Shown: positions 36,155 through 40,559 of the stretch, piece by piece
How positions within the stretch are numbered: position 1 is the stretch's first letter
Layout: each line of letters starts with the position of its first letter
Assembly: GCA_021806605.1 (NCBI GenBank)
Contig: JAJZQY010000004.1
Span: 28,251-92,250 of the forward strand
Length of the DNA stretch: 64,000 bases
DNA from: Pseudomonadota bacterium
GTDB lineage: Bacteria > Pseudomonadota > Gammaproteobacteria > Burkholderiales > JABEVD01
Direction of reading: 5' to 3'
Translations under genes and position numbers: made by a program
Notes under the pieces: model-generated
What the model was told of the DNA's origin: nothing
The model's input: only the letters and a program-made list of their open reading frames with translations
Database searches by the model: none

Positions 36155-36792
36155 CTAGTGGGTTAATTGTCTTCTCGAAAGCGCCCTGATCGACGGGACA
36201 GCGATGTCGACATAGGGCGGGCGCCGGGAACAGGAAGTCACCCAGACCGTCTTCATTCCCAGTTTCTTGGCCGTCTTGAGATTCTCCAGCGCATCCTCGA
36301 CCATGACGAAGCGGGCGGGATCGAGCCCCATTTTCCTGAAAATCCTGAAGAATCCGTAGGATTCCGGCTTGGGCCGGTATCGCGAATGCTCTATCGAATA
36401 TACCCCGTCGAACAGATCGAGAATCCCGAGAATTTTCAGCACATCCAGCGCATAATGCAACGGCGCGTTGGAAAAGACAATCTTTCTCCCGGGAATGGCG
36501 CGCAATGCATGCCTCAATTGCGGCTCGCGCACCACCATTTTGGAAAGCTCGGGAAACCGGTGCGTATGCTCCAGAAAATGCCCGGGCCTGGTGCCATGGT
36601 GCTGCATCATGCCGGAGAGCGTCGCGCCGTATTTTTCCCAGTAGTGCCGTCTCAGCCTGTCGGCTTCGTCATGTTCGAGATCCAGATGCGTCTTCAGGTA
36701 TTGCGTCATGCTCCTGTTGATGTGGGGAAAGATGTGCGGATTCGCATCGTGCAGCGTGTTGTCGAGATCGAATACCCAGATTTTCCCGGCCA

Positions 36793-36793
<1 letters not shown>
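36155..36793 (-). CDS. HAD-family pyrimidine 5'-nucleotidase
   Basis: The internal ATG at 36793 gives MAGKIWVFDLDNTLH, the HAD motif I DxDxT. Its start shares 1 nt with the argB stop (TGATG). Confidence 0.8.
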
Positions 36794-37740
<947 letters not shown>

Positions 37741-37775
37741 AAGACGGTCGATATGCGCACGGGAACCCTGGCAAT

Positions 37776-38102
37776 TCATCCGGCCGTCACCACGGCCCTG
37801 ATCTCGACGTGAAGCGCTTTTTTTATGGCCACGAAAATAGCCGAGAGACTTTCCATGGTGGGATTCCCGGATGCGGAGAGCATCCTGTGCAAGCTTTTGC
37901 TCGGTTTATGGACATCCGCGGCCAGCGCCTCAAATCCGACTGTCGCATTGACCAGTTCGCGGAGCACAAGTTTTGCCGTGTCCGGTTCGCCGTTGAGGAA
38001 AAGCGTGAGCGCCTCATCCAGCAGCGCCTGTGCAAAAGCAGGGTCGTTCTTCGCGCGGGCGACGACTGTTTGCTTGAAATCTCTGGTTAATGCCACGATC
38101 AT
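37776..38102 (-). CDS. Addiction-module antidote protein (HTH, HigA-like; dnstrm_HI1420 type)
   Basis: The internal ATG at 38102 overlaps the toxin stop (ATGA). The product is 108 aa and has an XRE-like HTH region ([28 protein letters not shown]). Confidence 0.8.
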
Positions 38103-38440
38103 TGCCTCCTTTTCATCTCTTTTGCCTTGCGCAATTTGTATCTTTCCCATAGCTCGACAGCCCGGTCGATATCCTTCTGCTGCCCTTTCTTTGTGCCGCC
38201 GCCAAGCAGAACTATGATCTTTAAGCCGTCCCTGGCAAGATAAATTCTGTAGCCCGGCCCCCAATCGATTTTATATTCTCCAATCCCACGAAACCAATTG
38301 ACGTTGGACAGATTGCCCTGACTCATTCTTAGCTTCGCTGTTGCGATCTTCGCTGCAGCGACAGGGTCCAGCGACAGGAACCAGTCTTCATAAGGGCTGG
38401 TTCCGTCTTCTTCGATCAATTCGCAAACCTGAAAGGTCAT
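38099..38440 (-). CDS. RelE/ParE-superfamily addiction-module killer protein (upstrm_HI1419 type)
   Basis: The ATG at 38440 gives a 113-aa product with the typical pattern [41 protein letters not shown] and [14 protein letters not shown]. The toxin precedes the antitoxin, as in higBA. Confidence 0.8.
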
Positions 38441-38447
38441 ATTTATA

Positions 38448-38488
38448 GTAACCTTAACGTTACCATTAGGCAAGGACCACGCCTTAAC
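38448..38488 (-). promoter_or_regulatory. Possible TA operator: inverted repeat GTAAC-N6-GTTAC plus two CCTTAAC direct repeats
   Basis: The element lies 8-48 nt upstream of the toxin ATG. GTAAC is at 38448-38452 and GTTAC at 38459-38463. CCTTAAC occurs at 38452-38458 and 38482-38488, 30 bp apart. Confidence 0.25.
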
Positions 38489-38650
38489 TACCTGGCGCGT
38501 CTTTATTGAATTCCCTTTCAATTTAGAGCATTATTGGAAAAATTCCCGAACCGACGCCGGAATAGCGGTTTCTCCCGTCAATGGGGGTGTCTGCTTCAGT
38601 TGGGCGCGGCAATCAACGAAATGACCGATAATCGAATTTTCCGGTAGGAG

Positions 38651-38866
38651 ATGAAGACAATGGAACTGACCGCAGTACTTACCCCCGCCGAGGAAGGCGG
38701 CTACATCGCATTGAACCCTGAGACCGGAACGACTACGCAGGGTGAAACCGTTGAAGAAGCGATTGCCAACCTTCAGGAGGCCACGGCGCTCTACCTGTCC
38801 GAGTTCCCAATTCACGTGTCTGGTCACCCCCTGGTAACGACCTTCAGCGTTCCAGCGCATGCCTAA
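38651..38866 (+). CDS. hicB: Minimal HicB-family antitoxin (71 aa, UPF0150 fold only)
   Basis: The sequence AVLTPAEEGGYIALNPETGTTTQGETVEEAIANLQEA is a typical HicB N-domain. The SD (TAGGAG) is correctly spaced. No RHH or HTH tail is present. Confidence 0.8.
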   Translation: MKTMELTAVLTPAEEGGYIALNPETGTTTQGETVEEAIANLQEATALYLSEFPIHVSGHPLVTTFSVPAHA

Positions 38867-39074
38867 ACTGCCGCACGTCTCGGGGCCTGCCATAGTTCGG
38901 GCACTGGAGCGCCTCGGTTTCGAAAAGATCCGCCAGTCCGGAAGCCACGTCATCATGCGTCGCGGTTCCAAAGGTTGTGTCGTGCCGATGCATGGCGAAG
39001 TCAAGACAGGCACCCTGGCAGGCGTTCTTCGACAGGCCGCTGTATCGGCGGAAGAATTTATCTCGGCTTTGTAA
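38859..39074 (+). CDS. hicA: HicA-family mRNA interferase toxin
   Basis: The fold is YcfA/HicA-like, with VSGPAIVRALERLGFEKIRQSGSHVIM containing the catalytic GSH. It overlaps hicB by 8 nt. Confidence 0.85.
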   Translation: MPKLPHVSGPAIVRALERLGFEKIRQSGSHVIMRRGSKGCVVPMHGEVKTGTLAGVLRQAAVSAEEFISAL

Positions 39075-39177
39075 CCATGGCATCCAACCCATGCTTTGAA
39101 GGATCGTCCGGGGCGCCGCGCCCCCTGCGCTTCCGGGCTGTCCTTCAAGCTTTCCGTTAGGCATCAAAGGATGAACG

Positions 39178-39816
39178 ATGACACAAAAATATGAAGAACC
39201 GGGATTGAATAAGGATGCGTTTACGTGTCCATCATGTGGTGCGTTTGCGGCAATGCAATGGGAGCCTCTACGTACCAATAGCGCATGGCAAGCTATTTCA
39301 CTTGCTTATTGTCACAGGTGTAAGCGCCACTCCGTTTGGTTGGATGGTTCGAATGGCTATCCAGTCAAAATGCTCTTCCCTAAATCATTAACTGCACCAC
39401 TGCCAAATGAAGACCTGCCAGAAGAGTGCCTGAACGACTACATGGAGGCGAGAGAAATCGCTAATAATTCGCCTCGTGGGGCGGCAGCATTATTGCGGTT
39501 GTGTATCCAAAAGCTGGCAATACATTTAGGTGGGGATGGAAAAAATATCAATGATGACATCGGTAAGCTCGTAAAAAATGGGATGCCTCAACGGGTTCAG
39601 CAAGCCCTAGATGTTGTACGTGTGGTTGGCAATAATGCAGTTCATCCTGGAGAAATGTCTGTTGACGATCAGCCTGAAACGGTTCACGCCTTATTCGGTT
39701 TAATCAACCTGATTACTGATAACCAAATAACCCAACCCAAACAAGTTGGTAATTTATTCGCCAGCTTACCGGAAGGGGCGAGAAACGCTGTTGAAAAACG
39801 AGATAAATACTCATAA
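39178..39816 (+). CDS. 4-Cys zinc-ribbon + DUF4145-type (HEPN-like) protein, function unknown
   Basis: The N-terminus has CPSCG..(24)..CHRC. The C-terminal half matches my memory of DUF4145 (YMEAREIANNSPRGAAALLRLCIQKL and ALDVVRVVGNNAVHPGE, which is R-x2-GN-x3-H). GC is markedly lower than in the flanks, 46 of the first 100 nt by hand count. Confidence 0.8.
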   Translation: MTQKYEEPGLNKDAFTCPSCGAFAAMQWEPLRTNSAWQAISLAYCHRCKRHSVWLDGSNGYPVKMLFPKSLTAPLPNEDLPEECLNDYMEAREIANNSPRGAAALLRLCIQKLAIHLGGDGKNINDDIGKLVKNGMPQRVQQALDVVRVVGNNAVHPGEMSVDDQPETVHALFGLINLITDNQITQPKQVGNLFASLPEGARNAVEKRDKYS

Positions 39817-39902
39817 CAAAATGCTCAAGATCGTTCGCTTTCACCCACTGAAATTCCGGAGACCTTAAAAAACCATGTTCACTTGATTGCGATTCCGCAG
39901 AC

Positions 39903-39926
39903 AAAAAAAGGATAACCTATCCTCTC
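39903..39926 (-). terminator. Rho-independent terminator-like hairpin (minus strand)
   Basis: The minus strand reads AGGATA-ggt-TATCCT followed by TTTTTTTGT. It lies about 195 nt downstream of the ibpA stop. Confidence 0.5.
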
Positions 39927-40018
39927 ATTGCTAGATTTGCGCGGAAAGCCACGCGAATTCGAACGTCAATCTTCCCAGTAATGGAAGCGCAGTTGAGCGG
40001 TCATCAATGCACCCTCCT

Positions 40019-40029
40019 CGATGCGCCAT
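40019..40029. repeat. Right copy of the exact 11-bp direct repeat CGATGCGCCAT
   Basis: It is identical to 37702-37712. Confidence 0.9.
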
Positions 40030-40118
40030 GCGATGCTCATGTGATGCGGCGCGACCGGAATCCGGAAAGGGCGCGCTTCAGGCCTGCGCGAAGAACCGCC
40101 CAGGCCGCGATTGCCACG

Positions 40119-40559
40119 TCAGTCGATGGTCAGGCGCCTCGCTTCGACAGTCGCCTTCTTGGGAAGCACTAGTTCCAGCACGCCGTCCGAATATTTCGCA
40201 TGGGAATTCGACTCGTCGACTTCCTGGTCCAGCGTGAAGGCCCGGGAAGCCTTGCCGAAATAGCGCTCGGAGCGCAGCACGATTTCTCCCTTCTTCTCTT
40301 CCTTCTCCTGCCTGACTTCGGCGGAGAGGGAAACCCGGTTGCCGTCTATCGTCACATGGATGTCTTCCTTCTTCACCCCCGGAATGTCCGCCTTGACGGT
40401 GTAGCTCTTGTCGTCCTCCTTGACGTCCACCTTGATCTGGGGAGCCTGCCTCTCCATATCCGTGCCGAAAGGCTTGACCATGAAGCCCTTGAAGAAGTTG
40501 TCGAACGGATCGTCGAACGGTTCCAGTCTGAAAGGATCCCAGCGGGAAATGTTGGCCAT
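40119..40559 (-). CDS. ibpA: Hsp20/alpha-crystallin small heat-shock protein
   Basis: The product has an alpha-crystallin domain (VDVKEDDKSYTVKADIPGVKKEDIHVTIDGNRVSLSAE and GVLELVLPKK). A strong SD (AGGAGGA) is present. Confidence 0.92.
   Translation of the reverse strand: MANISRWDPFRLEPFDDPFDNFFKGFMVKPFGTDMERQAPQIKVDVKEDDKSYTVKADIPGVKKEDIHVTIDGNRVSLSAEVRQEKEEKKGEIVLRSERYFGKASRAFTLDQEVDESNSHAKYSDGVLELVLPKKATVEARRLTID

Follow-up and report, generated by a model that had tools for sequence, protein, structure and literature searches.

Within the stretch of DNA analysed here (64,000 nucleotides, hereafter the window), the segment lying between argB and hsp20-mpl (37700-40120) holds a RelE/ParE toxin gene with its antitoxin, a hicBA pair and a gene of the RAZR (PD-T7-4) family, a putative single-gene anti-phage system. 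The latter occupies positions 39178..39816 on the + strand, starts with an ATG and encodes 212 aa followed by a stop codon, in agreement with the open reading frame originally described at this place. A Shine-Dalgarno-like AAGGA (39167..39171, + strand), read from the sequence, lies 6 nt 5' of the ATG, and the ATG at 39178 was retained as the correct start because the homologue alignments begin at residue 1.

The neighbouring genes consist of two toxin-antitoxin modules. The first, on the - strand, comprises a RelE/ParE-family toxin (38099-38440; TIGR02683, E=1.8e-23) and a presumed antitoxin of 108 aa (37776-38102), whose gene shows a 4-nt overlap with the stop of the toxin gene and whose product had no significant match in Pfam or NCBIfam, the expected HI1420-type antidote model being unmatched. 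The second, on the + strand, comprises a HicB-like protein of 68-71 aa (38651-38866) and HicA (38859-39074; HicA_toxin, E=2e-16). The HicB-like protein remained slightly below the cut-off for DUF7387 (27.3 vs 27.9 bits), matched HicB_lk_antitox weakly (E=0.022) and had no NCBIfam match, and it appears to be a minimal HicB devoid of a DNA-binding domain. The gene of interest thus lies beside two toxin modules, as had been noticed from the letters of the sequence, and these modules (37776..39074) are context and not part of the RAZR system. The apparent lack of hicA in one of the related metagenomic contigs (L002) was dismissed as a gene-calling omission. Likewise, a 359-aa open reading frame overlapping argB (36155-37234, - strand) was rejected, its N-terminal extension being an artefact of high-GC open frames; the real gene within it encodes a pyrimidine 5'-nucleotidase of 212 aa (36155-36793, - strand; TIGR01993, E=1.5e-52).

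The RAZR homologue is the most AT-rich gene of the window, as first proposed, with a GC content of 0.451 vs 0.589 for the window as a whole. Only 0.2% of the 639-nt intervals have a lower GC content, each of them overlapping the gene itself, and its GC3 is 0.39 vs 0.77 in the neighbouring mpl, revealing a foreign composition. A putative sigma-70-like promoter match (TCGACA-17-AAGAAT; 39029..39057, + strand) falls within the terminal (3') part of hicA, ~120 nt before the RAZR homologue; it has 9/12 consensus matches, which makes it weak evidence in a region with 6 such sites vs 2.1 expected from shuffles. The terminator scan returned no credible intrinsic terminator 3' of the gene, the matches at 39732-39749 falling within the open reading frame.

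The host is an uncultured betaproteobacterium close to Sulfuricella, Sideroxydans and Gallionellaceae, with an Mpl sharing 75-80% identity with the Mpl of named MAGs. An identical RAZR protein was found on 7 contigs from several samples, and the islet is shared with metagenomic contigs and with the MAG GCA_027327765.1. In a sister genome (Mpl 96% identical; L087, 4072-6892), the place beside hsp20-mpl is occupied by YoeB/YefM, an IS3-type transposase, an integrase fragment and a UvrD helicase. Because the sister genome carries other cargo at this place, we regard the RAZR gene as part of the accessory load of a hot-spot whose content varies. The search for direct or inverted repeats bordering the islet gave nothing convincing, and neither an integrase nor a tRNA is adjacent to it.

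The encoded protein begins with a Cys4 zinc-ribbon domain (ZFD; aa 14-67; 39217..39378, + strand), the presumed sensor of the phage trigger, continues with an inter-domain linker (aa 68-81; 39379..39420, + strand) and ends with an all-helical DUF4145/divergent HEPN domain, predicted to be an RNase (aa 82-212; 39421..39813, + strand). The CPSC-x24-CHRC ribbon initially recognised by eye was recovered, with Cys at positions 17, 20, 45 and 48. The AF2 model of the protein (pLDDT 90.6) displays a beta zinc ribbon and then a helical domain, with ZFD strands at 14-16, 23-32, 37-45, 51-56 and 63-67 (pLDDT about 87-97) and C-terminal helices at 82-94, 99-116, 124-133, 138-155, 166-195 and 199-210. This helical half carries the announced Arg...His pair: the ALDVVRVVGNNAVHPGE motif spans A143 to E159 and includes R148 and H156, and the predicted catalytic motif R148-V-V-G151-N152-N-A-V-H156 (R-x7-H; 39619..39645, + strand) was delimited by alignment with residues R146 and H154 of RAZR-Ec, the PD-T7-4 protein of E. 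coli UMB1727 (PDB 9y9c) used as reference throughout. The proposed link with DUF4145 was verified by a significant Pfam match at aa 90-169 (PF13643, E=5.4e-14, 52.5 bits vs a gathering cut-off of 23.1), while NCBIfam provided no model for the protein, the sole match (SCO2400, E=0.18) being spurious. The idea that DUF4145 is HEPN-related and fused elsewhere to restriction or Abi-type proteins is also supported by the literature, which assigns this domain to the HEPN superfamily and reports its fusions with restriction-enzyme, helicase and AbiJ-NTD modules, and also with zinc ribbons (PMC3710099).

Beyond these domains, the whole architecture corresponds to a known defence protein. The PADLOC PD-T7-4 model (PDLC04109) matched the protein in one stretch, aa 3-210 being aligned to profile positions 2-208 of 211 (E=2e-86, 286.8 bits). 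Similarly, a phmmer search returned chain OA of 9y9c, i.e. RAZR-Ec, in one alignment (aa 10-210 vs 9-208, E=1.2e-60). The same chain was the best Foldseek match of the AF2 model and its only significant match in the PDB (E=6.2e-10, probability 1.0), with modest TM-scores (0.42-0.48, rmsd 7 A) that probably reflect the domain orientation and the low resolution of the deposited model, though the superposition is not tight. On these sequence grounds, the window gene clearly belongs to RAZR (formerly PD-T7-4), a single-protein anti-phage system whose characterisation has already been published. The original prediction had considered the protein as uncharacterised and stand-alone members of the family as devoid of established function, and both statements have to be abandoned, as the architecture is that of PD-T7-4 (PMC9519451), renamed RAZR, for which the trigger, the cryo-EM structure and the RNase activity have been published (PMC13017515). 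Its broader proposal of a nucleic-acid-targeting effector in phage defence fared better, the family being one of defence RNases, provided that the premise of an uncharacterised protein is set aside.

PD-T7-4, which defends E. coli, was identified in 2022 by selecting functionally for anti-phage genes (Vassallo et al. 2022, PMC9519451) and was subsequently renamed RAZR, for ring-activated zinc-finger RNase, within a family termed divergent HEPN (Zhang et al., Nature 2026, PMC13017515). According to the latter study, the ZFD is the sensor and specificity determinant of RAZR and binds large rings of phage proteins, namely Gp77 of SECphi27 and the portal proteins of T7, T3 and SECphi18, with 24 RAZR subunits encircling the phage ring scaffold (PMC13017515). 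Activation requires this higher-order oligomerisation on the phage scaffold, beyond dimerisation or the release of an antitoxin; activated RAZR then cuts single-stranded RNA (mRNA, tRNA and rRNA) non-specifically, but neither double-stranded RNA nor DNA, and RNA cleavage halts translation, leading to abortive infection (PMC13017515). In RAZR-Ec, which is active alone under its own promoter, the substitutions R146A and H154A abolished both defence and RNA cleavage, and deletion of linker residues inactivated the protein (PMC13017515). The Arg and His singled out in the window protein before any database search are thus the counterparts of experimentally essential residues.

The two proteins are alike in length (212 aa for the window protein vs about 211 aa) and in the succession of a Cys4 ribbon, a conserved linker and a DUF4145/HEPN domain, and both are encoded by stand-alone genes without partner, carried by mobile or accessory DNA and matched end to end by the PADLOC model. 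By contrast, the host of the window gene is an uncultured betaproteobacterium and not an enterobacterium, and no integrase adjoins it. The overall identity of 46% (95/206 aligned columns) is unevenly distributed, decreasing from 57% in the HEPN domain to 43% in the linker (aa 66-79 of RAZR-Ec) and 26% in the ZFD, where the window protein lacks 5 residues between the Cys pairs and has 6 additional ones after the second pair. The zinc-binding Cys nevertheless align (C16, C19, C49 and C52 in RAZR-Ec; C17, C20, C45 and C48 in the window protein), as do the catalytic residues, R146 and H154 having R148 and H156 as predicted equivalents. Conversely, none of the five RAZR-Ec residues in contact with the Gp77 trigger is kept in the alignment to 9y9c: P30, R32 and A36 stand at the positions of R29, Y31 and R35, and T41 and E43 both face gaps. 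Such contact residues set the specificity and do not define the RAZR family, and their loss is expected for a hypervariable sensor. Because the sensor is only 26% identical, bears indels and keeps 0/5 of the contact residues, the trigger of the window protein probably differs from that of RAZR-Ec; it is presumably a protein of phages infecting the betaproteobacterial host. Of the dimer-dimer residues, D179 of RAZR-Ec is retained as D181, whereas D180, R184 and V21 are replaced by N182, Q186 and A22, so that the geometry of the ring assembly is not guaranteed.

A total of 5,918 relatives were retrieved from the protein database at E<=1e-5, nearly all of them named just "DUF4145 domain-containing protein", and homologues are spread over many phyla and are also carried by 209 IMG/VR viral or prophage contigs. 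Across 60 aligned homologues, down to about 50% identity, C17, C20, C45, C48, R148, G151, N152 and H156 are all invariant, and this invariance of the R/H motif and of the four Cys far exceeds chance. The linker is also strongly constrained, with P68 and P81 invariant and P74, P76 and D79 nearly so. Column entropy, on the other hand, reaches 2.18 bits in the ZFD vs 1.03 in the HEPN domain, making the ZFD the most variable region of the family, and 24 to 33 aa separate the two CxxC pairs in RAZR homologues. This contrast reproduces the published picture of a hypervariable sensor mounted on a conserved RNase. Furthermore, positions 182 and 186 (nt 39721-39735) covary, as N-Q (35 sequences), N-E (10), E-K (3), K-E (2) or D-R (2), the N-Q pair of the window protein being the majority state in its subfamily. 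At the sequence level, this covariation suggests that the inter-dimer contact formed in RAZR-Ec by the D180-R184 salt bridge is kept with a different chemistry.

The neighbourhoods of 78 homologue loci were then surveyed, with 146 adjacent genes scanned against Pfam and PADLOC and 96 more distal ones scanned to provide a rough comparison. No conserved partner emerged from the adjacent genes, the commonest Pfam family, Phage_integrase, accounting for 5/146 of them. An all-vs-all BLAST of the 568 open reading frames located within 3 kb of these loci likewise revealed no family present in more than 5 loci, the largest being an integrase-like gene of about 535 aa found directly upstream of the homologues in Enterobacterales, which fits a remark made in PMC9519451. 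With no neighbour shared by more than 5 of the 78 loci over 3 kb, we consider the window gene as a single-gene system. Defence genes (Type I and IIG R-M, Gabija, mad, DRT, SoFic, Old and Pycsar) are scattered near homologues, both in adjacent positions and at 6-8 kb. No HicA, HicB or RelE family recurs beside the 78 loci. RAZR homologues have a lower GC content than their flanks in 62/68 loci, by 6 points on average, and in hosts whose flanks exceed 0.55 the mean is 0.52 for the RAZR gene vs 0.61, which is consistent with a continual horizontal movement of the family.

Several individual loci of this survey deserve mention. Pseudomonas anatoliensis P141 carries two tandem RAZR paralogues on the same strand (L038, 7215-7877 and 8001-8645), the upstream copy being 39% identical to the window protein; these may represent two sensors with different specificities. 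RAZR homologues located one or two genes from mpl were also observed in a Nitrosomonadaceae MAG and in Acinetobacter sp. ANC 4862 (L027, 5960-8621; L067, 6534-8660), and this repeated proximity is either a coincidence or the mark of a recurrent insertion neighbourhood. Finally, two loci of Jeongeupia wiesaeckerbachi (NZ_CP136946.1; L022 and L023) occupy opposite ends of the chromosome record and show no difference over the 14,209 bases compared. This most likely reflects a terminal overlap from circularisation rather than a true duplication.

Family membership, the domain architecture, the conserved metal-binding and catalytic residues, the lack of a partner gene and the mobile/accessory nature of the locus are established by these observations. 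Taken with the published work on RAZR-Ec, they make it very probable that the window protein is a functional RAZR, i.e. a ring-triggered, oligomerising single-strand RNase acting through abortive infection. We infer the RNase activity, the ring-triggered activation and the abortive infection, properties known only for RAZR-Ec and RAZR-Kv (PMC13017515), by homology with RAZR-Ec, and the successive steps would be as follows. In uninfected cells, the protein would stand as inactive dimers or linear oligomers. Upon infection, its Cys4 zinc ribbon would bind a large ring-shaped phage assembly (for example a dodecameric portal or a recombinase-like ring), forcing the RAZR subunits into a curved, closed ring around it. 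Ring closure would reposition the composite active sites formed by the paired DUF4145/HEPN domains, with R148 and H156 as predicted catalytic residues, and the enzyme would then cut single-stranded RNA (mRNA, tRNA and rRNA) without sequence specificity. Translation would stop and the infected cell would release no phage.

The catalytic part of this scenario can also be viewed against canonical HEPN RNases (HEPN/MNT toxins 7AE6/7AE9, AF_0298 2hsb, HepS and Cas13/Csm6-type enzymes). The window protein appears to share with them a helical core, and it has an Arg...His pair that is expected to build a composite site upon dimerisation. Their motif is R-x4-6-H, whereas that of the window protein is R148-x7-H156, with the same spacing as in RAZR-Ec. 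The HEPN structures returned by Foldseek (2hsb, 2q00 and 7ae9) were weak fold matches, with probabilities of 0.5-0.9 and non-significant E-values, including 2hsb (probability 0.91, TM-target 0.60) and 7ae9 (probability 0.51).

The sensing step leaves more room for another reading, in which a RAZR-like HEPN RNase would be activated differently, its divergent zinc finger sensing a non-ring phage protein or a nucleic acid. The low ZFD identity to RAZR-Ec, with its indels and the complete loss of the Gp77-contact residues, and the high variability of the ZFD across the family would be compatible with such a shift. A precedent may be found in DS-38, another single-protein defence system made of a Zn-finger and a HEPN domain, for which the HEPN domain common with PD-T7-4 and the distinct Zn-finger domains have been taken to suggest distinct mechanisms (DefensePredictor preprint, 10.1101/2025.01.08.631726). 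However, DS-38, compared here by description, reportedly aligns with PD-T7-4 in the HEPN domain only, whereas the window protein does so in both domains, its ZFD aligning continuously with the PD-T7-4 model and with RAZR-Ec, four Cys and linker included. The covariation of positions 182 and 186 also argues for a kept oligomer interface. In addition, RAZR-Kv of Klebsiella variicola, 78% identical to RAZR-Ec and differing from it mostly in the ZFD, has a phage range unlike that of RAZR-Ec, yet is still portal-ring activated (PMC13017515). This provides a case of ZFD divergence retuning the specificity, beside which the window protein, much more distant, is set by description. An activation without phage ring consequently appears unlikely.

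The location of the gene raises another alternative, that of a toxin or third component of the adjacent HicAB or of the islet toxin-antitoxin systems, acting as an addiction or stress-response RNase and not as a phage sensor. The RAZR gene indeed follows hicB-hicA in the same orientation, at a distance of 103 nt, hicA contains the only promoter-like match, and the arrangement is kept in near-identical metagenomic contigs (L001-L006). However, HicA, HicB and RelE are not recurrent beside the 78 homologue loci. The GC content of the RAZR gene (0.45) vs that of hicB and hicA (0.57-0.58) moreover argues for separate acquisitions, and RAZR-Ec acts alone from its own promoter (PMC13017515), making this functional link highly improbable. 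Still less credible is a decaying or inactive remnant without current function, as could be imagined for a gene that is accessory, foreign in composition and located in a variable hot-spot, because the frame is intact and full-length, the catalytic, zinc-binding and invariant family residues are all present, and the identical protein recurs on several contigs and samples.

With a functional RAZR as the preferred reading, our results are of little importance as a discovery, since the literature already describes the RAZR family, what it does in defence and how it works, and since standard annotation tools for defence systems (PADLOC) label the gene directly. Their more modest value lies in the description of a RAZR homologue whose sensor has diverged strongly, from an uncultured Sulfuricella/Gallionellaceae-like betaproteobacterium, in the invariance of the catalytic and zinc-binding residues facing a hypervariable sensor over 60-80 diverse homologues, and in the identification of the gene as low-GC accessory cargo of a hot-spot filled with different toxin-antitoxin and IS cargo in a sister genome. 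The sensor class of the window protein, in which 24 aa separate the CxxC pairs and 19 aa lead from the second pair to the linker, its loss of all the known trigger contacts and its uncharged N-Q dimer-dimer pair lead us to the tentative idea, less probable than its opposite, that it responds to a new kind of phage ring, possibly of another diameter or symmetry than the portal or Gp77. If true, the "geometry-sensing" principle would reach beyond its present triggers to new ones in environmental bacteria. Divergent RAZR sensors such as this one represent useful material for mapping the range of phage ring proteins that can be detected.
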